Counted from the first letter of the stretch, positions 4,938 to 46,426 are shown. The stretch is DNA of 46,426 nt from Pseudomonadota bacterium (GCA_018241565.1 JAFEDO010000009.1:1-46426); one strand, 5' to 3'. Notes: a model not told the origin generated them from the letters alone. A program made the numbers and translations.

Positions 4938-7900
4938 ATGAACATTCGCACAAAATTATATGCATTATACTCTCGAGTCAGTCATCGAGTATCTTTATTA
5001 TTAAATAGAATTTTTTCATTTATTCAAAGTATTATCGGCAAAATTCAATGGACGCAGCCGCAGTGGTTAGGGAAAGCAAAACAGCTCGCCTGTGTTGGTA
5101 TGTCAAAGGCAGAAGCTAATCCTAAACGATTCGTGATTTTAATCGTGGTTATATTAAGCGCTGTGGTTGGGTTGGCTGCACTGAAGCATTGGTATGACCA
5201 TCGCCCACAGCCTGTGTTTGTGACTGCGCAATTTGAAGATTTTCAAATCCCAGCGCCATCTGATGAAGCGCAGGAACCCCTAAATTTATCCCTGAAATTT
5301 GTGACAGAAGGTGGAAATTCTCCGCAATCAGTAGCACCCTTACAAACGAAATTTGATCAGCCATTAACTCATGAAGAAGTAGAAATTTCTCCAGAGATGA
5401 CGGGTGATTGGATGTGGTCGAACGACAGTAGTTTATATTTCAAACCAAAAACAGACTGGAAAGCAGGGCAAAAATATACGATTCGTTTCAAGCCTGAAGC
5501 TTTTAGTCAACAAGCGAAATTTAAAAAGTATCAATATGTTTTCACCACACCAAAACTAAAACCCGAAATCAAGAATTTTCAATTTTATCAAGATCCAAGA
5601 GACCCTGCTCAGCAATCATTAGTGGCTACTATTCAATTTAATTATTCTATTGACCAAGAAAGTCTTTCTAAATATTTAATCATTGCACCACAAAATGAGA
5701 GTAGGAAAAAATCACCATTTACTGTCACTTATGCAAAACAAGATAGAGTAGCATATATCAAAACAACTCAAATTAAACTACCAGAAGAACCTGAGTATTA
5801 CGTATTAACAATTGCTAAGGGATTAGAAGCAAAAAATAGTAAAAATGCATTAGCGGAAGATGTATCTACTAAATTATTACTACCTAATGCAGGTAGTATG
5901 ATGAAAGTGAAAGAATTAAATGTTGAAATTGTACGTAATCAGAAAGGAACTCCAGAGCAAGTCATCACCGTAGTCACAAGTTTAGGTGTTAAAACAGAAG
6001 AATTGGAATCAGTGATTCGTGCTTATGAACTTCCAAAAGATTATCCAGCACATGATGTAGAAAATGTAAAAAAAGATTATCAATGGCGTAGTCCCAATGA
6101 AGTCACATCAGATATTTTACAACAACATGCAGAAGGAATTTTTCTAACAGCGATTCCTGCCGCACATGATCATGCGACTTTGCATGGTTTTAATTTTCAT
6201 GCAAAACCTGGTCGATATATTTATGTCACTATTGCGAATCAATTGAAAGGTGATGGTGGATATAAACTCAAAGATAGTTACGAAACAATTCTGCAAGCGC
6301 CGGAATATCCTAAAGAAACTCGGTTTATGCATAAAGGTTCATTATTAGCATTAGGCAGTGAACACAAGCTATCTCTACAAGTGCAAGGCTTATCGACTGT
6401 TAAATATGAAGTGGGTCGCGTTTTACAAAAAGAAATTAATCATCTGATTACACAGACTTATGGAAATTACGATAATCCAGAATTTCTGACGGAGTCATTT
6501 AATAAAAATGATTTGAGTGAAGTGTTCACTGCATTCGAAAGTTTTAATAATGCTGATCCTGCTAAACCTCAATATACCGCTATCGATTTAGATAAATACT
6601 TAAAGCCTAATGCTGGTAATTCAAAACCATTGGGTTTATTTTTATTAAAAGTACAAGGTTGGGAAAAGAAGCAAAGTAACGAATCAAATGACGAAAATAG
6701 TGTAGATGATGATAATGAGAGTAACAGTGATAGCGATGCGAATGGTTCTGCCATAGAAGGTACGATGAGTTCCCGATTAATTTTAATCACTGATATGGCA
6801 TTGGTTGTTAAAAAGAATCAAGATAATTCTCGTGATGTATTTATCTCATCCATTACCGAAGCAAAACCCGTATCTGGTAGTAAGGTTTCAATTTTAGGAA
6901 GAAATGGATCGCCATTAGTTTCTGGTATTAGCGATGCAACTGGTCATGTTACTTTCTCTGCATTAGACCCTGATAAGTACTCTCAAGATCGTGAGCCTGT
7001 TGTGATTGTGGCTACGCATGACAATGATATTTCATTTATTCCTTATAATAGAGCGGATAGAGAAATCAATTATTCACGATTTGATGTCGGTGGTATTGAT
7101 GATTCTGATACAGGAAATCTTGCTGCTTTTATTTTTTCAGATCGAGGCATTTATCGTCCAGGAGAATTAGCGCATTTAGGGTTTATTATTAAGAAAGCTT
7201 ATGCACAACAAGCAGAAGCAGGTATTCCGATAGAAATAGTTATTACTGATCCACAAGGTAATACGGTAAAAGACCAAATAGTTTCGCTTCCTCCCAATGG
7301 ATATTTCACTCAGGACTTTTTGACACAAGAAAAATCTTTAACAGGTACTTATAATATTTATGCGTATATTGTGAAAGATAATCAGCGTGGAAATTATTTA
7401 GGTGACGCACAAATTTTAGTTCGAGATTTCTTACCAGACACGATGAAAATCGGTGCGGAATTTTCAGTGCCAACGTCAGAAGGTTGGATTTCTCCGGAAA
7501 AACTCGCAGCAACAGTTAAACTTGCGAATCTTTATGGAACGCCTAGCGCTAGCCACAAAGTCACAGGAAAAATCACTTTAGATCCCCGTCAATTTTCATT
7601 TGCGCAGTATGCTAAGTACCATTTTAATAATCCTTTATATAATAAAGACAAACCACTGCGAACTGTGACAGAAGATTTACCTGAAGTTATCACGGATGCG
7701 AATGGTATTGCCCAATTCAATTTAGATTTGACACGTTTCGATAAAGCAACTTATGCATTACGTTTTTATGCACAAGGGTTTGCTAAAGATAGTGGTAGAA
7801 GTGTGAGTACAGAAATTTCTGCCTTAGTATCACCGCTGACTTATTTAGTCGGATACAAAACAGATGGCGACTATAGTTACATCCCCAAAAATTCTAAGAA

Positions 7901-10811: not shown

Positions 10812-13108
10812 TGAAAATCAAAATGCTGTTAAAGTGGTTTTTAGTTTTTTGCCTGGCTGTCATTATCAGCCTATTTATCTTAACTTTTTCTAAACCCCCT
10901 TTACTTGATGGCATAAATTTTTCGACATCCGTTTACGATAGTAACCACCAATTATTAAGATTAACCACAAGTACAGACCAAAAATACCGATTATTTGCAA
11001 GCTTATCTGAAATTCCACAATCCGTTATTGATGCAACACTATTAAAAGAAGATCAATATTTTTTTCAGCATCGAGGTATTAACCCTTGGTCAATGTGTCG
11101 AGCAATTAAAAATACTTACATCAAGCGTGAGAGAGTAGTAGGGGCTTCTACTATTACGATGCAAGTGGCACGTTTACGATACCACATCGATTCACATCAT
11201 GTGCTCGGCAAATTAAAACAAATTTTATATGCCATGAAACTCGAACTACATTATACTAAATCTCAAATTTTGGAAGCATATTTTAATTTAGCACCTTACG
11301 GCAATAATATTGAAGGCATTAAAGCTGCGAGCTTGATTTATTATCACCATCCATTAAACGAATTATCATTACCACAAGTATTAACACTCGTGGTTATTCC
11401 TCAAAATCCCGCAGTCAGAACTCCACAGCATATGAATAAGTTAGCTCAAGGAAGATTACATTTGTTTTCACGTTGGGTAGAACAGCATCCGAATGACCAG
11501 CAATATGCATCACTGTTCCAATTACCATTGGCATTGCATACGATTAAGGAGCTTCCTTTTGTTGCGCCCCATTTTGTTGATCATGTTTTAAAAACACATC
11601 CTTCAACTTCACTCATTCAAACCACACTAGATAGTAATCTTCAAAATATGGTTTCTAGTAAAATACGTCAATACATTAGCCATAAAAGTAATTTAGGTAT
11701 GCAAAATGCCGCCGCACTACTCGTTGATACGCGTGATATGTCCGTCAAAGCTATGGTGGGATCAGGAGACTTTTTTAATCAATCCATCAGTGGTCAAATT
11801 AATGGAACCACCATCGCACGTTCACCAGGGTCCTCTTTAAAACCGTTTATCTATGCGCTCGCATTAGATCAAGGGATTATTCATCCTGCGACTGTTTTAA
11901 AAGATACGCCTATGCATTTTGGTTCCTACGATCCTGAAAATTTTGATTATCATTTCTTAGGGCCATTGAAAGCTAAAGATGCATTAATATTAAGTCGAAA
12001 TATCCCAGCGATTTATCTCACCAATATTATCAAAAATCCTTCTTTCTATGAGTTTTTACAGAAAGCAGATATTCCGTTACGTTCAGAAAAAGAATATGGA
12101 TTAGCGTTAATTTTAGGAGATGCAGAAATCAGCATGGTGAAATTAGTGAGCTTATATGCCATGTTGGCTAATCAAGGGATATATCGTGAAGTTCGATTTT
12201 GGAAAGAGCAGCCACAAAGTAAAAGCAAACGGCTACTCAGTCCTGAAGCGAGTTTTTTAACGCTAGATATGTTGAAAGACAATCTACGACCGAATCAATT
12301 ATTTAGAGAAAGTAATAGCTTGCCAATTTCTTGGAAAACAGGGACTTCTTCAAGATTTCGAGATGGGTGGAGCGTTGGCGTTTTTGGTCCTTATGTTTTA
12401 GCTGTCTGGATTGGGAATTTTGACAATAGTGGCAATGCTTCTTTTGTTGGGCAAACAGCGGCAGCCCCTTTGTTCTTTTCTATTATTGATAGTATCGTAG
12501 CGAACCAAAACATAAAACCACTGTCATATGATTTATCAAAATTACATTTAACACGATTAAAAGTATGTAATGCGTCAGGGTTATTAGAAACACATGCCTG
12601 TCCAGGTACTTACGAAACTTGGTTTATTCCCGGCAAATCACCGATTCGAAAAGATACTGTTTTTCGAGAAGTGATGATAAATCCAGACACAGGAAAACGA
12701 ACTTGTCATATTGATCCAAAAAACACATTTGAAATTTATGAATTCTGGCCATCGGATGTTTTAAGGTTATTTCGTGAAGCAGGCATATCACGACGTATTC
12801 CACCTGAAGTGGACTCAAGCTGTGAATTTAAACATGCACATGAAAATGGACTATCACCCAGTATCACTTCACCACGGAATACTTTTATTTACACCATCAT
12901 AAAAGATTTCGGAAGCATTCCCCTAATCGCAAATGTTGATGCTGACGTAGAAGAACTCTTTTGGTTTTCCAATTCCACGTTCATCGGAAAATCAAAACGT
13001 GACCAACCACTCCTATGGCATCCACATCCTGGCCAGTATGTCATACGTGCGATTAATAATTTTGGACGATCAGATTCCATATCAATCTCCGTCCGAGAAG
13101 TTCATTGA
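10811..13108 (+). CDS. pbpC: penicillin-binding protein 1C (bifunctional glycosyltransferase/transpeptidase-like)
   Basis: 765 aa with an N-terminal signal anchor. GT51 motifs 'EDQYFFQHRGINPWS' and 'GASTITMQVAR'. Transpeptidase motifs 'SPGSSLKPF' (SxxK), 'SRN' (SxN) and 'KTGTS' (KTG). It also has a C-terminal PBP1C-type extension and sits directly after the A2M gene. Confidence 0.92.
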   Translation: MKIKMLLKWFLVFCLAVIISLFILTFSKPPLLDGINFSTSVYDSNHQLLRLTTSTDQKYRLFASLSEIPQSVIDATLLKEDQYFFQHRGINPWSMCRAIKNTYIKRERVVGASTITMQVARLRYHIDSHHVLGKLKQILYAMKLELHYTKSQILEAYFNLAPYGNNIEGIKAASLIYYHHPLNELSLPQVLTLVVIPQNPAVRTPQHMNKLAQGRLHLFSRWVEQHPNDQQYASLFQLPLALHTIKELPFVAPHFVDHVLKTHPSTSLIQTTLDSNLQNMVSSKIRQYISHKSNLGMQNAAALLVDTRDMSVKAMVGSGDFFNQSISGQINGTTIARSPGSSLKPFIYALALDQGIIHPATVLKDTPMHFGSYDPENFDYHFLGPLKAKDALILSRNIPAIYLTNIIKNPSFYEFLQKADIPLRSEKEYGLALILGDAEISMVKLVSLYAMLANQGIYREVRFWKEQPQSKSKRLLSPEASFLTLDMLKDNLRPNQLFRESNSLPISWKTGTSSRFRDGWSVGVFGPYVLAVWIGNFDNSGNASFVGQTAAAPLFFSIIDSIVANQNIKPLSYDLSKLHLTRLKVCNASGLLETHACPGTYETWFIPGKSPIRKDTVFREVMINPDTGKRTCHIDPKNTFEIYEFWPSDVLRLFREAGISRRIPPEVDSSCEFKHAHENGLSPSITSPRNTFIYTIIKDFGSIPLIANVDADVEELFWFSNSTFIGKSKRDQPLLWHPHPGQYVIRAINNFGRSDSISISVREVH

Positions 13109-14178: not shown

Positions 14179-17100
14179 CTATGGTGTTGATGGGCCCGTG
14201 GCCGCGAAGACAGGAGAATCTTCTTTAGCGGAGTGTAATGCTTGCAAAAATTGTAGGATATTAGTTTGTAAGAGACCTGACTGTTCAAAAGTAACCGTAA
14301 AAGCTTGAAAATCAGGTGACGCTATTACTTTGGCAGTTGTACCTGACGTAAGTTCACGGAGCCAAGTCATCCTAGCATTAGAGAGTGATTGATCAGGGTT
14401 TGTGCTTGAGAAATCGAGATTAGAATCGAAGCGGATAGTAACAGAATTCTCAGTTGCAGCTGCTTGGTAATTTGATGGTGGAGGATTGCTGCTATTAGCA
14501 GCGACGTAAGGTGGTGCAAACAACAAATGTCGTGCCTTATGAGCTGAAGCTAAGGTTGGAACGCTAATAGTACTAGTAGGGATATTCAATGGGACTATTA
14601 ATTCTTTTTCGAGCATGGAATGGATAAGAACGTATATCCAAACCATAAATCGACTACTGTTACCCATGTTTTGAAACAGACTTTCTAGTGTGTTGCTAAT
14701 TCCAATGGGGATTTTGCCATTATTAACCTTAAAAACTGGATGGTTTTCATTTAAAATGGCGCAAGCAGTAGCGTATCTCTGTTTAAGGCTTAAATAAGCC
14801 TCATTCCAATTGCCTTTGTTTTCGGCTTTACTACGCGTATCCGTAGTGACAGAAAAGTGGGTTTTGAACACCGAAGACTTCCCCGTACCGAGGTTTGATT
14901 GAATAGCGGATAAAAGTTCAAACAAGTTACTGCGTGTATAGGGCATGAGAATTTGATTTTTTAACGCAGAATTTTTTTCCAATTCTTGCAATAAATCCAC
15001 TGGCATACCGATGGACCCAGACATTACATATGATAGTCCATCAGTATTAGGTAAAAAACCTAGTTCTAATTTATAAAATTCAAGGCGTGCTAACTCAATA
15101 TCTTGAAGATATGAATTTTTATGTCTCTGTTTAGATCCAACTTTATATTTCTGTGTATCTTCGATAAGGTGTAATTCTTGATATATTTTTTCTGCTAAAT
15201 CAAAATCACGGATATAAATGGCTAAAATAGCCATGTAACGTAAAGTTAAGAGAGTACGATCGATAGGTGAGTTAATTCTTTGTCGAATTTCAATGATAGA
15301 ACGTAAATATTGAATAGTTTTTCTAATATAAAATTCATGTGGAGAAACCCAAGTTCTATTTCCTGGTAGAAATTTTTGATGTGCAAGTAGCCAAGCCTGT
15401 TGTGCCAGTGTTTGGAAAATTATATAAGCATTTTGCAAATAAAAGATGCTTTGTTTTTCATCGCAAATAGCAAGATGAAGGTATATTTTAGTCATTAATG
15501 TATAGGGAATGAGGGGTCTTTTTTGCGATTTTGAATTTTCTTCGAGAGCTGTATATCTATATTTTAATGCGTTTAAAATAGTTGCCGTTTCTGATAAGTG
15601 AAAAATTGAAGCTTTAAAGAAATTAGTTTCTTTATTAGCTTTAAGCAAATTTGGAATAACGTAATCTCTACTTGATAACAGTGTTTGATTAGAGGGTGTC
15701 ATTTTCTCTTTAAATACAGAATTATAATTAACACTTAAAATGAAAAGTTGTATGCGAGCCAAAATTTCAAAATGAGGGTTTTCTAAAGAAGTGGCGATTT
15801 TTTGCATTAAAATTAAAGTCTTAAATAATGGATAGATTTCTTTAAAGAGGTCAGTTGCTTTTGATGAATCATTTAAAATAGAAAAATGGATTTTTGCTTT
15901 AAATTTTAAGAGCTTTAAATGTTGTGGATGTTGATATACAAAATGTGATTCAGCTATGGCAAGTGCGGTATCAATGTGCTGTACTGCTTTAATAAAATCC
16001 TCAGAATTTTTGTTAAGAGCAGATTTTAGATAGGCATAGCTTGTTTCATAATGATGTGTAATTTGATACATAATATTAGTAGATAAATCTTCTAGTACAT
16101 TTGATGAATCTAGTAAAGATCGCATACCAAGACCATACTGATATGATGAAACTGCTAATTGGTGATCTGCTAATATTTTTTCTGCAGGAGAAAAGTATAT
16201 CGAAGAAGATTCAGCGAGGTTTGAGTTAATGCCGGAATTAGAGCGTTGTAAAATGGTACTTCTTGCAAGCAGTTTAAGTTTTGAAATATCAGGCGTGTGG
16301 TTATTAGGTTTAGTATTTATTAAATCAGAACCAGAGTGATTTAACAGCTGCTTAATAGATCGAGCTGCTTCAAAAATATTTTGGCGTTCCCCTAGAATGC
16401 AGTAGATTTCAAGTCTAGCTAGTTCTATATGCAGTGTGAAAAATGGGGCAATTTGTTTCAGAGCAGTTTCAGATTTTTTTAAGTGCTCTAGAGCCGCTAA
16501 CAGTTTTCCGTGCTTAATGCACGTTATTGCGGAGAGGTAATCATTGAATCCAGTTTCGAATGGATTAATGCTTGCTAAAGCGAATGCCTCGGTTGCCTTC
16601 AGTGGGTCTCCCTGCATCAGAATAAGCCCATTTAATCGTTGAAATTGAGAAGTTGACGAAGCATTTGGATAAATAGATACTCTAGTTTGATTAAAAGTTG
16701 AAATCCATTGTTCGGCGTTATCAAATGATTGAAAAATAAAAAATTCCCAGCTTTTTTGTAAATGCCTCATATGAGCTTCTAAATATTCAACTGTGATTTC
16801 TTTATCCGTATCCAAATTGAAGCTTTGAAAATCTGTAGAAAAATGCAGATATAGTAATATGATTGTGCGGATAATTTTTTTTAAATTTTTAAAATCACTG
16901 GGACTTAAACGATAAATATCGTGGGATGAATCAAATCTATATTTATATCTATTAAACTTCTGTGGTAAATTTTCATGATAAACAAAAATTGCTCCTGATT
17001 TTTCTATAAGCTGAACCCGAATTTTTAATTGATGTAGCGCGTTGATCGAAAATTCTAATTCTGTAAAAAGAGCTTCTGATAATGTTTTTGAATAATCAGT

Positions 17101-20100
17101 TAGAATTTTTGCCGTTTTTTGGAATAACACGGCTTTTTCTAGGGTAGATTCATTTTGCCCTTGGTTTTTTTTGTTGGCTTTAATAAGATCTTCAGCAGTT
17201 TTTAAAAGTGTCTGCGCCGTAGATGTAAGACTAATTGACAAAGGAGTAGTTTTAGAATCCTTTTGTAATCTCAATATAGTGGTTAATGTGCCCGAATATC
17301 CGATATCACTTTGCAATCCCCACAGATAGATTATTAATTGTAAAAAAGAATAAAATGAAGAATTCAAATCGAATAATGGAATTTTTTTAGGTTGAGATAA
17401 GTCTAATTCAAAATTCAAAATAGAACGTCGGATTAATTGTTCAAAAAAATCATTCCCAAGACGTTTTTTTAACAAAATTGGATCGCTTACCCATTGAAGA
17501 GGATTTTTAAATGCGTCGGCATGATTTCCAACAACTCCATGTGCAGTGCATGCTGCAGGTAATCTTGCTATCAGAGGCAACTCGCGAAATTGGTGAGGCT
17601 CAGACATGATTAAAGAAGTTTCATCATCAAGAGGTACTGTGACAATAGTTTTATTTGTACATAGCCCAAGATGGGTAAATGCTAAAGTGATGTTCCCTAC
17701 AGATAAAATAAAAGGATGTTCGCCAAAAGTGATTGCAATTTTCAAAAGAAAATAACGCAAGAGCTTTTCGTAAGGATTTTCTTTTGGTGAATTTGTTTTA
17801 GATGTCGGAAATATTATTCCTATCTCAACAGGTTCGTAAGGAAGAGTAAGATTGAATATTAAAATTTGATATGGAGGAATTAGAGTGTCAACTATATCTT
17901 TTCTCATACATCGAGTTATCAGGCTTGCTACTAAACTTTGTATACCTTCAATAAAATTCCTTGAAGATTTTAGTGAAATTCTTTCTAAGAGCTGTTGTCT
18001 AAATTGCATCAATGATGAGTTATCTTTCACAGCTGTTTTCGGGCGTTGTTGGTGTGAAAATTTCTGTCCGTTGCAAAATTCATTTTCAATGAGGACTAGT
18101 TGGTGCGCAAAATATCGGTAAGTAGTTTCACAAGCTAAAGAGTTTTTTAGATTAAAATAACGCGCACCTACCCAACAAATTTCAGCAGCACTATGAAAAT
18201 CAGAATTAGCTAAATATTTTCTTAATTGTTCTTTTAAATTATCAAAAATATTTTTTTCAGTAACAGTTAAAAGTTCAAAGGAAATATTTTTTTCAGTAAC
18301 AGTTAAAAGTTCAAAGGGTGTTAAAGCATTTTTACCTTGTGAATTGAATACACTCATTGTTCTATTTCGAGTTGGGAAACTTAGTGGAGCGAGAATAGGA
18401 CCGATAGGTGTTACATCCATTCTCTGAGGAACGCTAGGAATTACCATTGGTTTTTGGCCTGGATTAAGAGCTATAGAAAGTCTTAAATTAGTGCTAGCGG
18501 CTAATTCTGGTTGAGGGATCACTACTAATAAATCAGGATCTGAAATAATGGTACGAATGGTTAAGTTAGCAGAGGTTTTAAACGAAAGTAGCAATTCCAA
18601 ATATTCTGTGTTTTGAAGCAGATATTCTAGTACGGGCCCGTTTCCACGCTCTGCGGCCAAATGTGCTGGAGTTTCTCCTCCTGGATGAGTTACCGCTAAT
18701 GGTGGATCAATACAAACTCCTAAATGATGTAGAGTAGTAACTACATCTAGGTAGTTTGTTCCGGTATGAATGAGTTGGAGTCCTGCTGCATTTCGTTTTT
18801 GATATAATGACAATAAGTATAGGATGTTACAGCGAAGGCTATTAATGGGTAAATCTTCTGTTTTTATTTTTGAAGGTTGTGGCACACGTAAAACTGCTTG
18901 TAATTTGGCGGGGATATTAAGAATGACTTTAGGAAGAATATGTGACAGTGCAATTCGAATAGGAGGAGTGGGAATTTCCTGTCCTTCCATAATAATATAT
19001 AAAGTATCTTTATTGGTTGAAGTTGTTATTATCCCCGGTAAGCTTTCGAAATTAATAGGAATAGTTCCAGACATAGGAAGAGTTTTGGATTCTAATCCTT
19101 GTTCAGTATTCACCGTAAGAGTGGCATTTATCGTAATTTGTAACAGAGCGGTATTTTCCGAGGGTTGAATAATTTCAATTTTTAAACCTTTGAAAAGCAT
19201 GCTTTCGATCATTACCTGTAGTGCCGACGCATTACCAAGATCTGCTGCGATATGTAAGACTGAATTCCCTTCGGGAGTTATTAGTCCAGGTAGTGCACCA
19301 TGATCCACAAGTAATTTAGTTACGTTAATATTTGGGGTAGTCACACTCTGCATGAGTGGTGTTCTGTCGGCTTTATTAAACTCATCTGGATCTGCTAAAT
19401 GATGAGTTAGTAAATATTTAACTACTGCGGCAATAATTTCGGGAGGGTGAGCGTCGACATAATCTTTTTGAGTTAATAAATGTAGGACAGTATTTTTTCT
19501 ACTATCAACGCCTGTAAATTTTGCACCAAGAGCAGCTAAAAATTTTAATGCATCTACACTGGGGCTGTTTTTTAAAACAGCAAATACTGGATTTGAAGTT
19601 GGAAAATCATTTTCTTCAGCACTTTTTGAACTGGATTTTTTGAATACGATGGGAGTGCCGTTTTTTAAGACAATAGTCAATGAATTTGTAAAATTAGCAA
19701 GTTTAATCCATTCTGCTAGCGTCAGAATTCCATCGTCAGAAATAGTTAATTCAAGGTTAGGCCTATTGGTCACTAAGTCACATAAATCTGCAAAAGATAA
19801 GTCGCAATATAACAGCGTAATATTGATTAACTGCTTTAAGTTTATCGCTAATTGATGTATCGGAGTATGAGGATCATTGTGAAACTTTTTCCCCAATTGT
19901 AAACAATGACGAAATTCTAATTTTTGAATAAAGGGTAACTGAAAAATTCTTTGTAATATTAGATGCACTGTTTCAGTAGGGAGTAATTGATAATCAAATT
20001 CTTCAAGTAGTTCTGATATTGCTTCTGTGATTGTTTGCGTTCTATCTGCAGGATCATCATAGAATGAAAATGCTCTGTATTTCATTAATTCTTCATGAAT

Positions 20101-28068: not shown

Positions 28069-28913
28069 AAATCATGATTCACTTGTTGTACTTGTTTGAC
28101 AATTTTATTCAATTTTTCTGAAAATGGTTTTGAATTCAAGTCTAACAAATAATTAAATTGGGTATAAACACTAACAATAATCGTAAAAGCAAAAGTAATC
28201 ATTAAAAGTAAGGGGAGAGGCTTTTCTAAAAGCTTATGTTTTTTATTGATCACATTGGCAATAAATACATCCTTTTTGAAATCTCCACGATGAGTTCGTA
28301 TTAATTGATACAAATGATCTATTTTTTCATCGAGATACATTTTCCCGTGGGGCATAGTTTGGTAATTACCGGAAAACCCACTGATTAATAGCATATATAT
28401 TAATTCTAAAGAATCGATATGATTAGTTGGGTCCTTGCTGAGTTTATCTAGAATTGCAAAAAAAGGATCATCTTCTTGTGAGAAAGAAGGCGCATTCGCA
28501 AATAATTGTTTACAGGACCAAAATAACTGATAAGAGTTAGGTTTGCTTCTTAAAATTTCATCTAGCAAACAACAAATTAAATAGCGGGCGATAAATAAAG
28601 TTTCTGCTGGGTAGCCTGACATTCTTCCTCGAGATTCAAAAACTTTAAATTCGTGAGCTAAATGATATTGTAGTAATTGTAAATCAGGCAGAAGCTCCAT
28701 TTTTTTTAATTGTTCGCTTAATACAAAAAATGGTGCAGCGGCAGTCGTTAATAAATTAGTGCCAGTGTTAGCATTAAATAATCGAGAGCGATAATAAACA
28801 TTTGTAGAATCTTGTTCGGACCCTACTACCACTTCATCTTGTGAGTGATAAGGAGGGTCTATTAAAAAATCTTTTTGTGTTAATGAAACGGAGTCATTTA
28901 ACATGTTGTCCAC
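28065..28913 (-). CDS. icmH: IcmH/DotU (TssL-like) protein
   Basis: 282 aa. DotU-family core motifs 'ARYLICCLLDEILRS' and 'ELIYMLLISGFSGNY'. Single C-terminal TM 'LPLLLMITFAFTIIVSVY'. The track start is GTG at 28913; the ATG at 28904 is an alternative. Either start overlaps the purD 3' end. Confidence 0.8.
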   Translation of the reverse strand: MDNMLNDSVSLTQKDFLIDPPYHSQDEVVVGSEQDSTNVYYRSRLFNANTGTNLLTTAAAPFFVLSEQLKKMELLPDLQLLQYHLAHEFKVFESRGRMSGYPAETLFIARYLICCLLDEILRSKPNSYQLFWSCKQLFANAPSFSQEDDPFFAILDKLSKDPTNHIDSLELIYMLLISGFSGNYQTMPHGKMYLDEKIDHLYQLIRTHRGDFKKDVFIANVINKKHKLLEKPLPLLLMITFAFTIIVSVYTQFNYLLDLNSKPFSEKLNKIVKQVQQVNHDL

Positions 28914-40155: not shown

Positions 40156-41802
40156 ATGTCTGCTAAAGAACTCATTTATAGTAATGATGCTCGTATTAGA
40201 ATGTTAGATGGTGTGGATGGTTTGGCGAAAGCAGTTGCCGTTACACTAGGTCCAAAGGGTCGTAACGTTGTTATCGAAAAATCTTTCGGTTCACCTATCG
40301 TTACTAAAGACGGTGTGACTGTTGCGAAAGAAATTGAATTTGAAAATAAATTCAAAAACATGGGCGCTCAGATGGTTAAAGAAGTTGCGTCACAAACTTC
40401 TGACAACGCGGGCGATGGTACAACGACAGCTACTGTATTAGCTCATGCAATTATCATGGAAGGCCAAAAATCTGTAGTTGCTGGTGCAAATCCTATGGAT
40501 CTCAAACGCGGTATTGATAAAGCCGTTGAAGAATTGATTGGTGCACTGAAGAAACTTTCTAAGCCTTGCAAAGATACTAAAGCGATTGCACAAGTTGGTA
40601 CTATTTCTGCAAACTCTGATGCAACAGTTGGAAATATTATTGCTGAAGCAATGGAAAAAGTGGGTAAAGAAGGCGTTATCACTGTCGAAGAAGGCAATGG
40701 ATTGAAAGATGAATTGTCTGTTGTTGAAGGTATGCAGTTTGATCGTGGTTACATATCTCCATACTTCATCAACAACCAACAAAACATGAGCGCTGAATTA
40801 CAAGATCCTTATGTTCTGCTCGTCGACAAGAAAATTTCTAATATTCGCGAAATGTTGCCAACATTAGAAGGCGTTGCGAAAGCAGGTCGTTCACTCTTGA
40901 TCATCTCTGAAGATGTTGAAGGTGAAGCATTAGCAACTTTAGTTGTGAATAATATTCGCGGTATCGTTAAAGTTTGTGCGGTTAAAGCGCCAGGTTTTGG
41001 TGATCGTCGTAAAGCCATGTTGCAAGACATCGCTATTTTAACTTCTGCTAATGTGATTGCTGAAGAAATTGGTAAAACTTTAGAAGGTGCTGGTGTTGCC
41101 GATTTAGGAACTGCGAAACGAGTAGTAGTTACTAAAGAAAATACAACTATCATCGGTGGTTCTGGTAAAGCAAAAGATATCCAAGCACGTATCACTGAAA
41201 TTCGTGCTCAGATCGCTGATACGACTTCTGACTATGATCGTGAAAAACTCCAAGAACGCGTTGCAAAATTAGCAGGCGGTGTTGCAGTGATCAAAGTAGG
41301 TGCTGCGACTGAAATGGAAATGAAAGAAAAGAAAGCACGCGTAGAAGATGCGCTGCATGCAACTCGTGCTGCCGTAGAAGAAGGCGTGGTTCCTGGTGGT
41401 GGTGTCGCGTTGATTCGTGCACAACACGTATTAAAGACACTCACTGGTGACAATGAAGATCAAAATATTGGTATCAATATTCTTCGTCGTGCGATTGAAG
41501 CGCCATTACGTCAAATCGTTTCTAACGCTGGTGTAGAAGCTTCTGTTGTTTTAAATGAAGTGGCAAAAGGCAAAGGAAGTTTTGGTTATAACGCTGCGAC
41601 TGGTGAATTTGGTGACATGTTAGAAATGGGTATTTTGGATCCAACCAAAGTGACTCGTACTGCATTACAAAATGCAGCTTCTGTTGCCGGACTCATGTTG
41701 ACGACAGAATGCATGATTGCTGAACTTCCTAAGAAGGAACAGCAAGCACCTATGGGCGGTGGTGACATGGGTGGAATGGGAGGTATGGGCGGCATGATGT
41801 AA
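40156..41802 (+). CDS. groEL: chaperonin GroEL
   Basis: 548 aa with '[12 protein letters not shown]', '[17 protein letters not shown]'-type motifs ('[21 protein letters not shown]') and a C-terminal GGM repeat '[15 protein letters not shown]'. Confidence 0.98.
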
Positions 41803-42039: not shown

Positions 42040-43323
42040 GTGGGATTATCTAAAGAAGCACAAATCACTAAGGAACTCTCCAATCGAATTGTGAATGCTC
42101 AAAAACCTATTCGTATTTTAGATGCCATTAAGTGGGATGATAGTATTAAGCGCGATTTTTTTAGTAAAAATTGCCAAGAACCTCCATCTGTTAGCTTAGA
42201 ATATTATAAAAAATATCCACTTATTTTTAATCCTGAAGAAAAAATTGAAGAATTCCGTGCGATAGAACGTGACATCACCAAGAATTTGGGTCAATTCAAT
42301 CCAGTTGGTGAAATCATGATGCGCATGTGCCGGGAATATCGAATGGTTGTTCGTATGTTAATGGCTCGAGGGACTCCAGAATTTTCTCAGCTATCACAAA
42401 ACTTATATGGTGCAGCGGATGAAGTGTTTTATCCTGGGGGACCCAGTGTTCATGATGTCGCTGAGATTTTTTCTGAAGTAACACCAAAAATTGAATCTTA
42501 TACAACCAATGAATTAGATGAGAAAAATATTGATAGCGCTAAAGCAGCTGAAATTTTAAGAGTACGATTACAAAATTATTTTACCGAGCAAGAGGAACCC
42601 ATTCAAGTTGAAGTGACTGATGAAGTGGTTGCAGATGCCGCAGCGGGTGCAGAAGTATTAAAACTTCGAAGTAATGCGATGTTCAGTGAACGACAACTTC
42701 GATTACTAGAAGTACATGAAGGATGGGTACATCTCGGAACAACACTCAATGGACGCGCCCAACCCGTCTGTACTTTTCTCAGTAAAGGTCCTCCTTCTTC
42801 AACGGTGACACAAGAAGGATTAGCCGTTCTCATGGAATTATTTACCTTCAGAGAATATCCAGAACGTTTACGTCGATTAGCGAATCGAGTCGTTACTATA
42901 TCTATGGTTGATAAAGGGGCCAATTTCTTAGATATATTTCATTACTTTCAAGAACAAGGATACGGTGATGAAAATAGCTATGAAACTTCAGTGCGTATTT
43001 TCCGCGGCAGTACACCTGATGGATTACCTTTCACGAAAGATTTATCGTACACCAAAGGTGTTGTCATGATCTTTAATTACATTCGATTAGCCATACAGCG
43101 CGGATTATTAGATCGCATTCCATTATTATTCTTAGGTAAAACAACACTTGGTGATTTGCATTCATGGTCTGATCTCATCGACAAAAAAATTGTCGTTCGC
43201 CCTAAATATGTTCCCCCTCAGTTTTTTGATATGTCTGGACTCGCCTCCTGGGTGAGTTATTCATTATTCCTCAACAAAATTAATTTGCAGAAGCTCGCCG
43301 AGAACTACAAGCAGATTTTGTAA
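42040..43323 (+). CDS. QEGLA-motif protein (DUF1704 family, putative metallopeptidase-like)
   Basis: 427 aa with a GTG start. It contains the family-defining 'TQEGLAVLMELFT' and 'LEVHEGWVHLGT'. Confidence 0.75.
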   Translation: MGLSKEAQITKELSNRIVNAQKPIRILDAIKWDDSIKRDFFSKNCQEPPSVSLEYYKKYPLIFNPEEKIEEFRAIERDITKNLGQFNPVGEIMMRMCREYRMVVRMLMARGTPEFSQLSQNLYGAADEVFYPGGPSVHDVAEIFSEVTPKIESYTTNELDEKNIDSAKAAEILRVRLQNYFTEQEEPIQVEVTDEVVADAAAGAEVLKLRSNAMFSERQLRLLEVHEGWVHLGTTLNGRAQPVCTFLSKGPPSSTVTQEGLAVLMELFTFREYPERLRRLANRVVTISMVDKGANFLDIFHYFQEQGYGDENSYETSVRIFRGSTPDGLPFTKDLSYTKGVVMIFNYIRLAIQRGLLDRIPLLFLGKTTLGDLHSWSDLIDKKIVVRPKYVPPQFFDMSGLASWVSYSLFLNKINLQKLAENYKQIL

Positions 43324-43375
43324 ACAGACTCGTGTTTTCGAGAAAGCTTTTAATAAATGACTAATACCATTTTTC

Positions 43376-43410
43376 CTGGAATATTGATGATTGGATCGCT
43401 AATATTCCAG
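43376..43410. repeat. 10-bp inverted repeat between convergent genes (possible weak bidirectional terminator or island boundary)
   Basis: 'ctggaatatt' - 15 nt - 'aatattccag'. There is no convincing U-tract on either strand. Confidence 0.3.
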
Positions 43411-43506
43411 AGAAAATAGGTTTTTGAAGTTTTTATTAAGAGGTAAAGGTATAGAACATACCGACTCTACTTGCATGGTTATTATCCATGTATACAAGTT
43501 GCAAGT

Positions 43507-44616
43507 TTATCGCTTTGGCGCAAGGCAAACAGGCCTTCCAATAAAACCTGTAAGATCATAATGGAGATGAGGTTGAGATTGTTGAGATGAAGATCCTCGC
43601 GTATTTGCTAATATCGGTGAATCTTCGGATATAAGCTTTATTGTAAGCGAGTTCTTTGTTTTCCTGCTTGGCTTTGTGCAGTCATCTTTTTTTTCTTCTT
43701 TATTAAAATTTTTGGAATAGTATTCCACTCTTAAATTAAGTTCATTGCATTCCTGCTTTCTAGATTCAAAAATTATTTTAAGTCCTTCGATATGATCATT
43801 TCCAACAATAAATGAAAAATCATTTTTTTCTGTATTGGCTTTTAAAATAAGAAAAATATTATTACAAAAAACATGATTTCTTAAATTAATTAAGATTTCA
43901 GTACTATGGATATCTTCTTCACAAGGGTTATCGAAGAAAGCCCGTAATTTGTCTGTACTCAAATTAGCATTTTGTGCAATTGTTTCGTATGTAGTCCTTA
44001 TCATTGTTAGTAATTTAGGAAGTAAAATATTTCTTAAGAATGGGTCTAACAATTTTTTAAATTCAAAGAATAATCTAAAAAAATTTAAATCAAATTTAAC
44101 TATGTCTATTTTTTCCGAAAAAAGCAATTCATCATAGATAATAAAGTGATATCCTACTATGTCTAGCAAATGATTTTCTTTTAAAACACCTGAAATGAAG
44201 TCTTTTATAGGGCTCCCAAAAGCAAGAAATAAAATTTCTTTCACATAGTCAACTATCATTTCAGTAAAATTGTGTCTAGATTGCTTTACTGATTTAATAT
44301 TTTTTTTAACTTCAGAATCTAACTGGCTTATACAATCTAAAATTTTGTTTTCTTGATCTAAATTATATAGAGCCATAAAATCTCGAATACCATGAAATGT
44401 AGTTATGTGACACTTTAAAATATCACCATAAATTGATAACAATGCATCTTCGACGCCGTAAATATAATTAGATTTTTTAAGTTCTTCAGTATTAAAATAC
44501 AAACCTTCTTGAAACAAAATTAATGTGTGCTGCTCAGCTTGATTACGGTAATTTTTTTTGCGATTCTGATCAATAAGATTATTATGCGCTTCACCATATA
44601 TTTTTAGAAGTTTCAT
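43507..44616 (-). CDS. hypothetical protein, no recognisable family; partner of the upstream P-loop/wHTH gene
   Basis: 369-aa uninterrupted ORF in very AT-rich DNA, 53 nt downstream of and co-directional with 44670-45902. Mostly helical-looking and Lys/Asn/Ile/Phe-rich. The C-terminal ~60 aa are polar and low-complexity ('KKDDCTKPSRKTKNS..RGSSSQQSQPHLH'). Confidence 0.55.
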   Translation of the reverse strand: MKLLKIYGEAHNNLIDQNRKKNYRNQAEQHTLILFQEGLYFNTEELKKSNYIYGVEDALLSIYGDILKCHITTFHGIRDFMALYNLDQENKILDCISQLDSEVKKNIKSVKQSRHNFTEMIVDYVKEILFLAFGSPIKDFISGVLKENHLLDIVGYHFIIYDELLFSEKIDIVKFDLNFFRLFFEFKKLLDPFLRNILLPKLLTMIRTTYETIAQNANLSTDKLRAFFDNPCEEDIHSTEILINLRNHVFCNNIFLILKANTEKNDFSFIVGNDHIEGLKIIFESRKQECNELNLRVEYYSKNFNKEEKKDDCTKPSRKTKNSLTIKLISEDSPILANTRGSSSQQSQPHLHYDLTGFIGRPVCLAPKR

Positions 44617-44669
44617 AAAAAGCGTCCATCATGTTGGTTACGGAAGTATAATTTCTAAAAATGTGTACA

Positions 44670-45902
44670 TCAAATATCCGAATATGCAATTGTCGCATCG
44701 AGTGACGGATAATAATATTTTAATTTTCCAGCTTGTTTAATAGTAATCAGTTGTTTTTCATGTAAGACGGAAATAACTCTGCCAACATATTGTGGGGTTT
44801 TTTTAATTATTTTAGCTACGTCATTTGGTATTGGATTTTTTAAATTGACTAATATTTTTAAGACATTTTCTTCAGCACTAGTAATATCGGTACGTTCGAC
44901 TCTATCTCTGGCTAATTTAATTAACATAGGTTTTGCTAAATCAATTGTAATTTTATTAGTTAAATCACCTACGTGTAAACTGTTCATCAAACGAGAAACT
45001 AAACCGAAAATGTAACGCAATCTACCGGAAGTGATTTGATATAGATAAGTAAATACTTCCATTTCAATCGGTATTTCTGTTTTTGGAGAGTTTCTATAAT
45101 ACTCAAATCGCTTGGTAAGCATTTCAGTAAATTCTTCTTTATTTAAAGGATTTATTTTGACTTCGTAAGAAATAATATCATCCATACGATCAACTTGCTG
45201 AGCGATAAATTTTCTAAGACCAATATCGCCAACGAATAGCCAATTTGTTCCATCAATTTGCGTGTAATCTCTTAATGCATTAAATAAATATTTCATCTCT
45301 TGTTCAGTATGAACAACGCCTACATCTAAGTTATTTAATTGTAAAAGTACGCCATGTTTGTAACCATTTTCTCTGATCAAAGCAACTAAATCTTCGATAA
45401 GATGACTTAGTGTAGCTGATGGAATGATAATAGGTTGTGTTACAACACCAGCGGTTTTTCCATAATTAATGCCAGCACCAAAAGCCTCAATGCCAAAAGA
45501 ACGATAGGTTTCAGCAATGCGTGAAGAAATAGCTTTTGCATTATGGAAACGAGGATCTTTTGTAATAGCTGAGTTATTAGCAAATAATTCTAGTTCTCTG
45601 ACAAGATGTGAAATGATCACAGCTAGTAAAGTTTCAAGCCGCCAACCTTGATCGATCTTAATTTCATTTTTTGTCGTAAAGTAATGTTTATTATTTTTTG
45701 TTGTAAACCTCAAGTAGTTGCCGAATGATGTTGTACCAACTCCTCTGGCTCCTTCTATAACAATTCTGACGTTACTACTTGTTAAGACATTTTGGCAGGT
45801 TTTTACTTCCTGACTATGGCCTGTGTAGAGTGCCAACGTTTCACTGGTAATAGGCGTAGTTTTTAAGGGGTCATCTTTAAAGCCAAGTGTTTGCCAATGC
45901 AT
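44670..45902 (-). CDS. ORC/Cdc6-like (AAA_16 / COG1373-like) P-loop NTPase with C-terminal winged-helix domain; Walker A Lys replaced by Thr
   Basis: 410 aa. P-loop 'VIEGARGVGTTSFGNYL' (nt 45726-45752). Walker B-like 'GTNWLFVGDIG'. The C-terminal 'ENVLKILVNLKNPIPNDVAKIIKKTPQYVGRVISVLHEKQLITIK' looks like a MarR/wHTH. An SD-like 'GGAGA' precedes the ATG. Confidence 0.6.
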   Translation of the reverse strand: MHWQTLGFKDDPLKTTPITSETLALYTGHSQEVKTCQNVLTSSNVRIVIEGARGVGTTSFGNYLRFTTKNNKHYFTTKNEIKIDQGWRLETLLAVIISHLVRELELFANNSAITKDPRFHNAKAISSRIAETYRSFGIEAFGAGINYGKTAGVVTQPIIIPSATLSHLIEDLVALIRENGYKHGVLLQLNNLDVGVVHTEQEMKYLFNALRDYTQIDGTNWLFVGDIGLRKFIAQQVDRMDDIISYEVKINPLNKEEFTEMLTKRFEYYRNSPKTEIPIEMEVFTYLYQITSGRLRYIFGLVSRLMNSLHVGDLTNKITIDLAKPMLIKLARDRVERTDITSAEENVLKILVNLKNPIPNDVAKIIKKTPQYVGRVISVLHEKQLITIKQAGKLKYYYPSLDATIAYSDI

Positions 45903-45921
45903 TTGTTTCTCCGTGAGTTAG

Positions 45922-45999
45922 TGAACCTATTATAACCTAAAAATAGGTTCTGAACCACTTTTTGGGTTCTGAACCTATTTTTAGGTTATAATAGGTTCA
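45922..45999. promoter_or_regulatory. 35-bp-arm near-perfect palindrome in the divergent intergenic region (candidate operator / bidirectional promoter)
   Basis: Arms 45922-45956 and 45965-45999 pair with a single mismatch (45951/45970), separated by an 8-nt spacer. Each arm is itself a hairpin (GAACCTAT..ATAGGTTC). Each arm contains TATAAT, at 45987-45992 on + and 45929-45934 on -. The pentamer GAACC/GGTTC occurs six times. Confidence 0.6.
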
Positions 46000-46012
46000 A
46001 GCTACATTTTAA

Positions 46013-46041
46013 TTGACAAAGTTTAAAGTAATTACTAATAT
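46013..46041 (+). promoter_or_regulatory. sigma70-like promoter for the AbiEi-like gene
   Basis: Perfect -35 'TTGACA' (46013-46018), a 17-nt spacer, then -10 'TAATAT' (46036-46041). It lies 35 nt upstream of the ATG at 46077. Confidence 0.5.
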
Positions 46042-46076
46042 TGTTAGTTGTTTTAATATAAAATGTCAAATAAAAT

Positions 46077-46426
46077 ATGAAATTAAAAGATTTTTTTGCT
46101 CGAAATCCTGTATTTAGGCTTGATGAGATCATTTCTTGTATGGAAAGGAACGGCCAAACCAATTCTAACACGCAGCGCGAATTGATGAGTTACCATTTAA
46201 AAGCTGGTCATATTATTCGAATACGTCGAGGGTTTTTTGCTTCTATCCCAATATCTTTTAAGCCAGAGAAATTTACAGCTGATCCCTATTTAATTGCTGG
46301 GCGAGTATGTAAAGATTCTGTGTTAGGGTATCACTCTGCATTAAGCTTTTATGGAACTGCTTATTCCATTTATCAAGATTTTTATTTTTTTACAAAACAA
46401 TCGATGCAATCTTTTTCTTATCAAGG
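46077..46426 (+). CDS. AbiEi-family (type IV toxin-antitoxin / abortive infection) antitoxin-like protein, N-terminal 116 aa; 3' end outside the window
   Basis: My own translation, open to the window edge and absent from the track: 'MKLKDFFARNPVFRLDEIISCMERNGQTNSNTQRELMSYHLKAGHIIRIRRGFFASIP..DPYLIAGRVCKDSVLGYHSALSFYGTAYS'. The pattern N-terminal 'NPVF(T/R)..E', then 'G.I.R(I/V)RRG.(Y/F)', then 'DP.LIA....DSVL.YHSAL..(H/Y)G' matches AbiEi-type proteins as I remember them. Confidence 0.55.
   Translation, partial: MKLKDFFARNPVFRLDEIISCMERNGQTNSNTQRELMSYHLKAGHIIRIRRGFFASIPISFKPEKFTADPYLIAGRVCKDSVLGYHSALSFYGTAYSIYQDFYFFTKQSMQSFSYQ

Follow-up and report, generated by a model that had tools for sequence, protein, structure and literature searches.

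A stand-alone, probably mobile family of ORC/Cdc6-fold proteins with a lysine-less P-loop and a putative self-operator array, found through an AT-rich islet of a Pseudomonadota contig

The locus

The stretch of DNA considered here is contig JAFEDO010000009.1 (positions 1-46426) of assembly GCA_018241565.1, from a bacterium labelled Pseudomonadota. It was analysed whole, over its 46,426 nucleotides (nt), and is referred to as the window. Its last 3.1 kb (43324-46426) hold two genes on the minus strand, called X and Y in what follows, and a divergent gene of the AbiEi type that is cut short by the contig end, which falls inside it at 46426. Our subject is mainly X, whose product has the predicted fold of the Orc1/Cdc6 proteins, and the palindromic array of short repeats in front of it. 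An earlier note on this DNA had taken X and Y for a candidate two-gene defence or addiction module. The most useful outcome of the analysis is a different one: X appears to belong to a stand-alone, mobile family of origin recognition complex (ORC)-fold proteins with a lysine-less P-loop and a putative self-operator array that covaries with the predicted recognition helix. Three features matter for this.

44670-45902, minus strand: X, a stand-alone protein of 410 amino acids (aa) with the ORC/Cdc6 fold (AlphaFold2 model, Foldseek, motifs, homologues)
45922-45999, no strand: nested palindrome of 78 bp with eight GAACC/GGTTC-type half-sites (repeat, fold and count statistics)
45929-45934, minus strand: perfect -10 hexamer of X, TATAAT (read from the sequence)

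The islet is set apart by its base composition. Its GC fraction is 0.311, against a mean of 0.368 (standard deviation 0.03) for 3.1-kb windows of the contig; it is the lowest such window, and only 0.2% of windows are equally low. The dip is driven mainly by the Y gene (0.282) and the spacers (0.26-0.32), while the X gene, at 0.333, is comparable to the giant open reading frames (ORFs) found elsewhere in the contig. The earlier note had judged by eye that the DNA turns AT-rich after the stop codon of a QEGLA-motif gene (43323) and that accessory DNA of deviant composition begins there, and windowed GC agrees on both counts. ORF calling reproduces exactly the two frames that it gave, 44670-45902 (minus strand, 410 aa) and 43507-44616 (minus strand, 369 aa), with a gap of 53 nt. 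The description of these genes as orphans nearly fits Y, with its two relatives, and fails for X, which has more than 495 homologues.

Fold and family of X

The AlphaFold2 model of X, built from a 56-sequence alignment, has a mean predicted local distance difference test score (pLDDT) of 85 and a predicted template modelling score of 0.81. It shows an AAA+ alpha/beta base, a helical lid and a C-terminal winged helix. The best Foldseek matches are full-length archaeal Orc1/Cdc6 structures (2qby_A/B, 1w5t_A, 2v1u_A and 1fnn_A; E 3e-8 to 2e-6), in alignments of about 430 columns at 11-15% identity, followed by ORC subunits, CED-4/Apaf-1/NLR proteins and RFC. The earlier description of an ORC/Cdc6-like P-loop protein ending in a winged helix-turn-helix (wHTH) was thus right at the level of fold. 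By sequence, a weak C-terminal wHTH is all that is visible (Penicillinase_R/TrmB E about 1e-3; BlaI 1p6r E 9e-4). No Orc/Cdc6 profile matches X above threshold; Pfam gave sub-threshold scores to wHTH families and KAP_NTPase, and a profile search of the Protein Data Bank (PDB) returned wHTH repressors. The last 70 residues align to the winged helices of BlaI/MecI, ZitR/AdcR, MepR and ArsR/SmtB.

Homologues of X number more than 495 at E<=1e-3, and the best 120 are 406-433 aa long, 58-84% identical and nearly all annotated as hypothetical. An exhaustive profile search gave 707 family representatives at 50% identity, for which Pfam and NCBIfam hold no model, and a search of the literature found no description of the family. 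X belongs to an unnamed family. Among the PADLOC-DB v2 models, those for CARF3 matched X through their wHTH part (E 1e-4), and no system component was hit. Distant relatives of X also carry a wHTH and have below-threshold scores for AAA_16, ATPase_2, KAP_NTPase and nSTAND; against PADLOC they gave weak P-loop or wHTH matches and no system. AAA_16/ATPase_2 (PF01637)/STAND-like ATPases fused to a wHTH, which are uncharacterised genes annotated as 'ATP-binding protein', are among the nearest known types for the distant relatives, at scores that stay under the Pfam thresholds.

The nucleotide site of X is unusual. Its Walker A motif reads G51-A-R-G-V-G-T57-T-S and has no lysine. Throughout the clade the motif is G-x-R-G-V-G-T-T-S, with threonine for lysine invariant in 56 sequences. 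Distant relatives of about 390-545 aa keep GVGKT[ST], and a few small branches have other lysine-less variants (GIGASS, GMGSTS). In the whole family h-h-h-Q-L-N-N-L-D stands at the place of the acidic Walker B, X reading QLNNLD, so that both the canonical Walker A (GxxxxGK[ST]) and an acidic Walker B (DE) are missing from X. The family also shares a lid motif, G-x-x-R, that is sensor 2-like (compare Orc/Cdc6) and an N-terminal motif, W..G...NPF...P...FVGR, whose end is YTGH in the clade of X. A glycine-rich loop at residues 137-157 was considered as a replacement P-loop and ruled out, as a comparable loop is present in relatives that have the lysine. Because the Walker A lysine is lost and there is no acidic Walker B, we infer that the AAA+ module of this clade is not a normal ATPase motor; more probably it is a binding or oligomerisation switch.

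The palindromic array and the promoter of X

The array at 45922-45999 consists of three dyads of the form GAACC-N7-GGTT (45934-45950, 45952-45969 and 45971-45987) and of outer TGAACC and GGTTCA half-sites. The two 35-nt arms are 97% complementary, and the single-strand DNA fold has a z-score of -10.8. Exact GAACC or GGTTC occurs six times in these 78 nt, where 0.1 would be expected (Poisson P about 1e-9), and every match to the dyad in the 46-kb window lies inside the array. The array ends 20 nt short of the start codon of X. Read in the direction of X, its end is ...AGGTTATAATAGGTTCA, in which the last two half-sites flank TATAAT, at 26 nt from the ATG; a Shine-Dalgarno sequence, GGAGAA, stands 7 nt ahead of the ATG (45902). 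As the -10 box is inside the array, most of the palindrome must precede the point where transcription begins, and the promoter would be occluded by a protein bound there. An RNA element was ruled out for the same reason, the palindrome being mostly not transcribed, and because Rfam gave nothing beyond sub-threshold miRNA-hairpin matches. We read 45922-45999 as a candidate operator array of X.

Homologues with 76-84% identity to X keep both the position and the layout of the array. The survey, which took one genome per GTDB species, gave 66 loci with X (L numbers below denote loci). The same layout is found 20-50 nt before the start codon at L001, L004, L005, L006, L070-L073 and L075, with two dyads, outer half-sites and a TATAAT, TATACT or TATGAT box. 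The ending AGGTTATAATAGGTTCA, or its TATACT/TATGAT variant, is present at L001, L004, L071, L072 and L070. At L072 nothing but the array separates the groEL terminator from X.

Some loci have more than one array. L005 and L073 have two in tandem upstream of X. L004, on a 1.7-Mb contig (JASGJS010000001.1) of a metagenome-assembled genome (MAG), has an X homologue (79% identity) flanked by 63-nt GAACC arrays at 5923-5985 and 7231-7293. This array-X-array unit looks like a cassette and takes up exactly the DNA between two stop codons, one of a Glyco_hydro_3 gene and one of ubiD. As a general feature, an array after the X stop codon was rejected: it is clear in L004 alone, weak in L020 and missing in 51 other loci. 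When metagenomes at large were scanned for the GAACC-type array, three loci emerged, two with the array directly upstream of X homologues and one an orphan. A regulon made up of extra arrays was set aside on the strength of that small number, and of L045, where the additional copies belong to duplicated X genes.

Covariation of the recognition helix and the half-site

The recognition helix of X is predicted at residues ~368-382 (KTPQYVGRV...). For 54 loci, the commonest 5-mer upstream of X that is not purely AT was compared with residues 368-376 of this helix. Loci were grouped by helix residues 371, 372, 374 and 375, and 5-mers were expressed as mean counts per 120 nt upstream. The commonest 5-mer shifts with the helix, as listed below, and the off-diagonal combinations of helix and half-site have counts near background.

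Helix QYxGR: GAACC, 3.9 (19 loci; coding background 0.08)
Helix QYxGK: AAACC, 2.6
Helix SQxSH: TCAAT, 5.0
Helix NYxSN: GTGTA, 3.0
Helix SYxSN: TGTGA, 3.2
Helix QAxSR: TGCAA, 3.5
Helix TFxSK: GATAC, 3.5
Helix PYxSK: GTTAA, 9 (one locus)

The replacement of arginine by lysine together with G by A at the first base of the half-site is a prediction of direct base read-out by the putative recognition helix. GAACC repeats are kept upstream of homologues that are only 61-66% identical to X (L007, L011, L015, L019 and L025), a persistence that is worth noting because unconstrained intergenic DNA would be randomised at this distance. Together these comparisons make a good computational case for the binding of X, by way of its winged helix, to the array ahead of its own gene. 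If so, the pairing of helix residues with half-sites (arginine with GAACC, lysine with AAACC) offers a ready-made specificity code.

X as a solo gene

The neighbours of X were compared by all-versus-all clustering of ORFs of >=80 aa, by clustering of ORFs of >=45 aa within 2.5 kb of X and by a Pfam census. Neither the ORF clustering nor the census found a recurrent neighbour in 56 loci. The 146 flanking proteins of the census matched 152 Pfam families, the commonest of which, AAA_14/DUF4143, occurs in five proteins. In 27 of 51 loci X and the gene that follows it are convergent. Ten close, co-directional downstream genes were examined: six are housekeeping genes (dus, an EamA transporter gene, dnaG and those for D-Ala-D-Ala dipeptidase, Hsp33 and a CCA/polyA polymerase), one encodes an AAA_16-type ATPase and three have no Pfam match. 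No homologue of Y is found beside X in 70 other loci, AbiEi is likewise missing at the other X loci, and two distant relatives of X whose contexts were read have no consistent partners either.

A sensor-effector system could have a fixed partner or a variable effector. The variable-effector version was ruled out because the close co-directional genes are of the housekeeping kind, and both versions fall since no neighbour recurs and downstream genes are convergent or housekeeping. The module of X and Y proposed in the earlier note thus finds no conserved co-occurrence, and neither protein matches a PADLOC system. What stands of the defence-islet appearance that it described is the accessory DNA with a gene of the Abi/toxin-antitoxin kind; the pairing of X with Y does not.

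Distribution and mobility of X

The 66 loci belong almost entirely to MAGs classed as Legionellales, Coxiellaceae, Francisellaceae, Thiotrichales or unclassified Gammaproteobacteria; the cultured Cysteiniphilum halobium is one of the carriers. Many genomes have two or three paralogues with 44-64% identity to the X of the window. Positions vary. The closest homologues are found after gcvT (L001), between a Glyco_hydro_3 (nagZ-like) gene and ubiD (L002 and L004), directly after groES-groEL (L072), between RelB/ParE and BrnA toxin-antitoxin genes (L071, protein P0003, 82% identity) and near genes for a MobA/TraI relaxase, a TrwB type IV coupling protein and several toxin-antitoxin systems (L070, protein P0008, 80%). 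Compared with their counterparts at L072, X of the window has 81% identity, GroEL 70% and DsbD 44% (window regions 40156-41802 and 44670-45902). The GC fraction of X is sometimes below that of its flanks. Because X is better conserved than GroEL, sits at variable positions and is sometimes lower in GC than the DNA around it, it probably moves horizontally, although extreme constraint may also explain conservation above that of GroEL.

No homologue of X was found in 72,556 PLSDB plasmids (by tblastn), in 50,697 INPHARED phage records or among IMG/VR viral contigs, and BFVD returned only generic AAA+/RFC folds. A plasmid, phage or viral origin of X was rejected on these results.

Several further observations concern individual loci. 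In the window and at L072, X is at most two genes downstream of groEL, in opposite orientations. Homologues at L012, L016, L020, L029, L039 and L069 come from bins labelled Alphaproteobacteria, Verrucomicrobia, Marinamargulisbacteria or Promethearchaeota, which reflects either mis-binning or transfer outside the Gammaproteobacteria. A tandem duplicate of X at L045 (11144-12365) is a frameshifted pseudogene with a promoter of its own, and the X gene at L064 (6001-8642) is split by an insertion of about 1.3 kb.

Interpretation

The explanation that we prefer, with a probability of roughly 0.6, is that the islet comprises three independent accessory units and that X is a solo, autoregulated DNA-binding switch. 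AbiEi would be the first gene of an ordinary AbiEi/AbiEii pair and have a promoter and an inverted repeat to itself, and Y would be lineage-restricted cargo, its sole full-length relative being on a conjugative element. X would be a stand-alone, horizontally mobile gene for a DNA-binding protein of the ORC/Cdc6 fold, with no need of a partner gene. The winged helix would read GAACC half-sites, as the covariation of helix and half-site suggests. From the geometry of the locus, several subunits would assemble on the 60-78-bp array of dyads that holds the -10 box of X, and X bound there would repress its own transcription. The lysine-less AAA+ module would then most likely act as a ligand-binding or oligomerisation switch that sets the cooperativity of DNA occupancy.

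This scheme has a parallel in the autorepressors of the MarR, BlaI and ArsR families, with which X shares the winged helix and predicted dyad sites over its own promoter. Those proteins, however, are dimers of 100-150 aa that use one dyad, whereas X has a 330-aa ORC-like module ahead of its winged helix and an array of six to eight half-sites over 60-78 bp. If the scheme holds, it describes ORC/Cdc6-fold proteins that act alone and form a fairly large, unnamed bacterial family, and an initiator-type AAA+ module turned into a non-hydrolysing DNA-binding switch. The conservation of X above that of GroEL between hosts also raises the question of its benefit to intracellular gammaproteobacteria.

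Several points weigh against this explanation. Operator binding rests on covariation that is partly confounded by the shared ancestry of gene and promoter, which inflates the counts. The second array of L004, 86% identical to the first and without a -10 box, is directly after the stop codon of X. At L048 a second array of 73 nt (11039-11111; GATAC/TATCA type), 97% identical to that of the local X paralogue, lies 5 kb away from the paralogue, with an Hcp-like gene on one side and, downstream, a gene for an AAA_14/DUF4143 ATPase; it is possibly a second target or a recent duplication. No X gene lies in the 9.8 kb to one side of the orphan array of the metagenome scan (L074:9844-9905, Ga0206983_113) or in the 0.45 kb to the other; this array adjoins the 3' end of an ATPase gene fragment and is about 100 nt upstream of a gene for a 233-aa secreted-looking protein. 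Given these three extra arrays (the 3' copy of L004, L048 and L074), X may have further targets, or the array may lead an existence apart from X or spread with gene duplications. A second activity of X, as yet unseen, is likely, since identity of 60-84% over the full length and dozens of invariant pocket residues exceed what an autorepressor needs. Finally, X and Y share a strand here, 53 nt apart and with no terminator-like hairpin between them, and may be co-transcribed in this contig.

A first alternative gives X a role in trans. X would then be a single-gene factor, either a transcription factor with a dispersed regulon or a DNA-occupancy protein that excludes or silences elements bearing the array, and self-repression would be a housekeeping loop. 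The arrays without an adjacent X (L048 by hcp, the L074 orphan and the 3' array of L004) fit it, as does conservation beyond the needs of an autorepressor, and paralogues within one genome differ in recognition helix and half-site, as they would if their specificities were not to cross-react. Set against this, the 46-kb window has no second site, the L048 copy keeps 97% identity across 73 nt, flanks included, and so resembles a recent duplication rather than an evolved operator, and the extra copies at L045 go with duplicated X genes. We regard a role of this kind as rather unlikely.

A second alternative, which we consider doubtful and which takes up the other reading of the earlier note (a replication-initiator-like protein of a decayed integrated element), makes X a replication initiator or control protein of an integrative or conjugative element, the array its origin-recognition site, and the chromosomal copies remnants or integrated forms. 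Archaeal orc1/cdc6 genes sit beside origin recognition boxes (ORBs), which are inverted repeats. The best structural matches of X are to origin-bound Orc1/Cdc6 proteins (2qby, 2v1u, 1w5t and 1fnn), whose three-domain architecture and approximate length it shares; its lid GxxR resembles sensor 2, and its gene abuts an array of inverted repeats that it is predicted to bind. In the window, 77 nt of very AT-rich DNA come after the array (GC 0.259 for the whole spacer 45903-46076), X is flanked by two arrays in one genome (L004), and X probably moves horizontally, with a close homologue on a conjugative element. Yet X differs from Orc1/Cdc6 in having threonine for the Walker A lysine, NNLD at Walker B, 11-15% identity and no match to the Orc/Cdc6 models of Pfam. 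Its hosts are bacteria, which presumably replicate by the usual DnaA route, and its DNA site overlaps its own -10 box, as an operator would, with no obligatory AT-rich unwinding element; at L072 none would fit, as the array is wedged in there with the groEL terminator on one side and the start of X on the other. X was not filed in Orc/Cdc6, because it has no membership at the sequence level and the catalytic motifs are missing. The loss of the ATP-site lysine tells against an initiator as well, and so do the absence of homologues from PLSDB, the phage records and IMG/VR and the presence of two or three intact chromosomal paralogues per genome under purifying selection, which is hard to square with dormant origins. 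Plasmid Rep proteins with iteron-type origins are no closer, as X is not on PLSDB plasmids and its repeats are promoter-overlapping dyads rather than direct iterons.

A combined form of these two ideas can also be stated, and we hold it to be improbable to much the same degree as an initiator. X and its array would be a self-contained, mobile ORC-plus-ORB-like unit of Legionellales- or Francisellales-like bacteria, serving either in initiation or copy control of integrative or conjugative elements, or in a sequence-programmed, single-protein DNA occupancy in which different arrays are policed by paralogues that differ in recognition helix, and its P-loop would bind a ligand other than ATP, or ATP without turnover. 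Origin function and exclusion by a single protein both have a low probability, and either would be much more interesting if true.

The least probable explanation, a two-gene anti-phage or addiction cassette with X as NTPase sensor and Y as effector, possibly together with the AbiE pair, would suit the shared strand, short gap and lack of a terminator-like site between X and Y, the AT-rich accessory DNA next to an Abi gene, the recurrence of AAA_14/DUF4143 and ATPase_2 genes in some X neighbourhoods and the finding that, of the X homologues with contexts read, the closest three are near toxin-antitoxin genes or on a conjugative element, but we think it very unlikely, given that the pairing is seen in this contig alone (missing from the 70 other loci, with no X beside P0122, the full-length relative of Y and the one whose context was read), that X is monocistronic in 27 of 51 loci, with housekeeping genes after it in the others, that PADLOC knows neither protein as part of a system, that an NTP-driven sensor is hard to reconcile with the altered Walker motifs, and that Y has no recognisable effector domain. 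The literature (PMC12839542) describes BrxC of the BREX systems as ORC/Cdc6-like; the PADLOC models for BrxC/BrxD and PglY do not match X, and the X family has no partner genes. There is a lesson for annotation here, in that an NTPase gene beside an Abi gene in AT-rich DNA is insufficient for calling a defence system.

Y

43507-44616, minus strand: Y, a 369-aa near-orphan (GC 0.282; two relatives)

Single-sequence and profile searches of 5.8 billion clusters found two relatives of Y, P0122 (39% identity) and P0123. P0122, the only full-length one (L003:5429-6541), is encoded 125 nt after a gene for a TraI-type relaxase/helicase of more than 1766 aa (L003:3-5303; AAA_30, TraI_hel_assoc_N, DUF7146 and Toprim_3), with no X nearby, which suggests that genes of the Y type travel as cargo of conjugative elements. 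Pfam, NCBIfam, PADLOC and PHROGs gave no match to Y, in keeping with the earlier remark that it has no recognisable motif. Its AlphaFold2 model is poor (pLDDT 56), and neither Foldseek nor a PDB profile search gave anything significant. Y is a real gene and accessory cargo, not a conserved partner of X.

One lead may be mentioned. Y contains, in this order, GEAH, QEG, NLRN and GNDHIEG. The Tiki/TraB/GumN/erythromycin-esterase pattern is GxxH ... E ... R ... GxxH, and the motif order of Y resembles it, which is a lead and not a result. EreC is at Foldseek rank 2 for Y, with E 0.5 and a probability of 0.2, from the poor model.

AbiEi

46077-46426, plus strand: N-terminal 116 residues of AbiEi from its ATG, cut by the contig end (PADLOC PDLC02270)
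46006-46076, plus strand: promoter-like region of AbiEi, with -35 TTGACA (46013-46018) and -10 TAATAT (46036-46041) at a spacing of 17

The divergent gene running off the window had been named as AbiEi-like in the earlier note, and this is confirmed by PADLOC PDLC02270 (E 1.5e-35, residues 1-114 of a 265-position model); Pfam AbiEi_4 scores below its cut-off (E 9e-4). The AbiE systems are type IV toxin-antitoxin, or abortive-infection, pairs of AbiEi and AbiEii (DUF1814), and the 116 residues present in the window share the N-terminal wHTH domain of AbiEi. The closest annotated relative is the AbiEi of Desulfomonile plasmid pDESTI.01 (266 aa, 38.8% identity), which is followed, with a 4-nt overlap, by an AbiEii nucleotidyltransferase. 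Because AbiEi directly precedes AbiEii on that plasmid, it is reasonable to infer an AbiEii gene just beyond 46426.

The promoter scan gave 10 of 12 matches. A 13-nt inverted repeat (46006-46018 and 46064-46076, 92% complementary), separate from the X array, brackets this promoter and is a putative AbiEi operator, by analogy with published AbiEi autoregulation. The gene is an ordinary AbiEi, and no functional link from it to X or Y was seen in the window.

The rest of the contig

43345-43444, no strand: long hairpin with a core stem at 43371-43416 (RNA fold -34 kcal/mol, z = -4.6, 200 shuffles)

This hairpin sits between the convergent stop codons of the QEGLA/MATCAP gene (43323) and Y (43507), and is probably a bidirectional terminator that marks the left edge of the AT-rich islet. 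Its Rfam match, to a miRNA precursor and sub-threshold, is that of a generic hairpin.

The genes upstream of the islet are housekeeping or secretion genes (groES/EL, dsbD, aroQ, accBC, purH, purD and dotU/icmF), and this set fits a Legionellales-like host. The dotU and icmF pair (DotU; IcmF-related N, middle and C domains) lies at 24907-28913 on the minus strand, next to purD, and is consistent with a host of the Legionellales/Coxiellales type or with TssL/TssM of a type VI secretion system. Exact-sequence look-ups of X and Y found no further contig carrying either.

The gene before the islet (42040-43323, plus strand) is a QEGLA gene, as the earlier note had it, matching TIGR02421 (E 2e-106) and the full profile of Pfam MATCAP (E 4.6e-124). 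It is thus a bacterial homologue of a eukaryotic tubulin-processing enzyme, the microtubule-associated tyrosine carboxypeptidase, and the host is probably intracellular. Elsewhere the contig contains giant ORFs of GC about 0.33-0.37: 14179-24717 on the minus strand (3512 aa), and 4938-10811 (1957 aa) and 10811-13108 (765 aa) on the plus strand.

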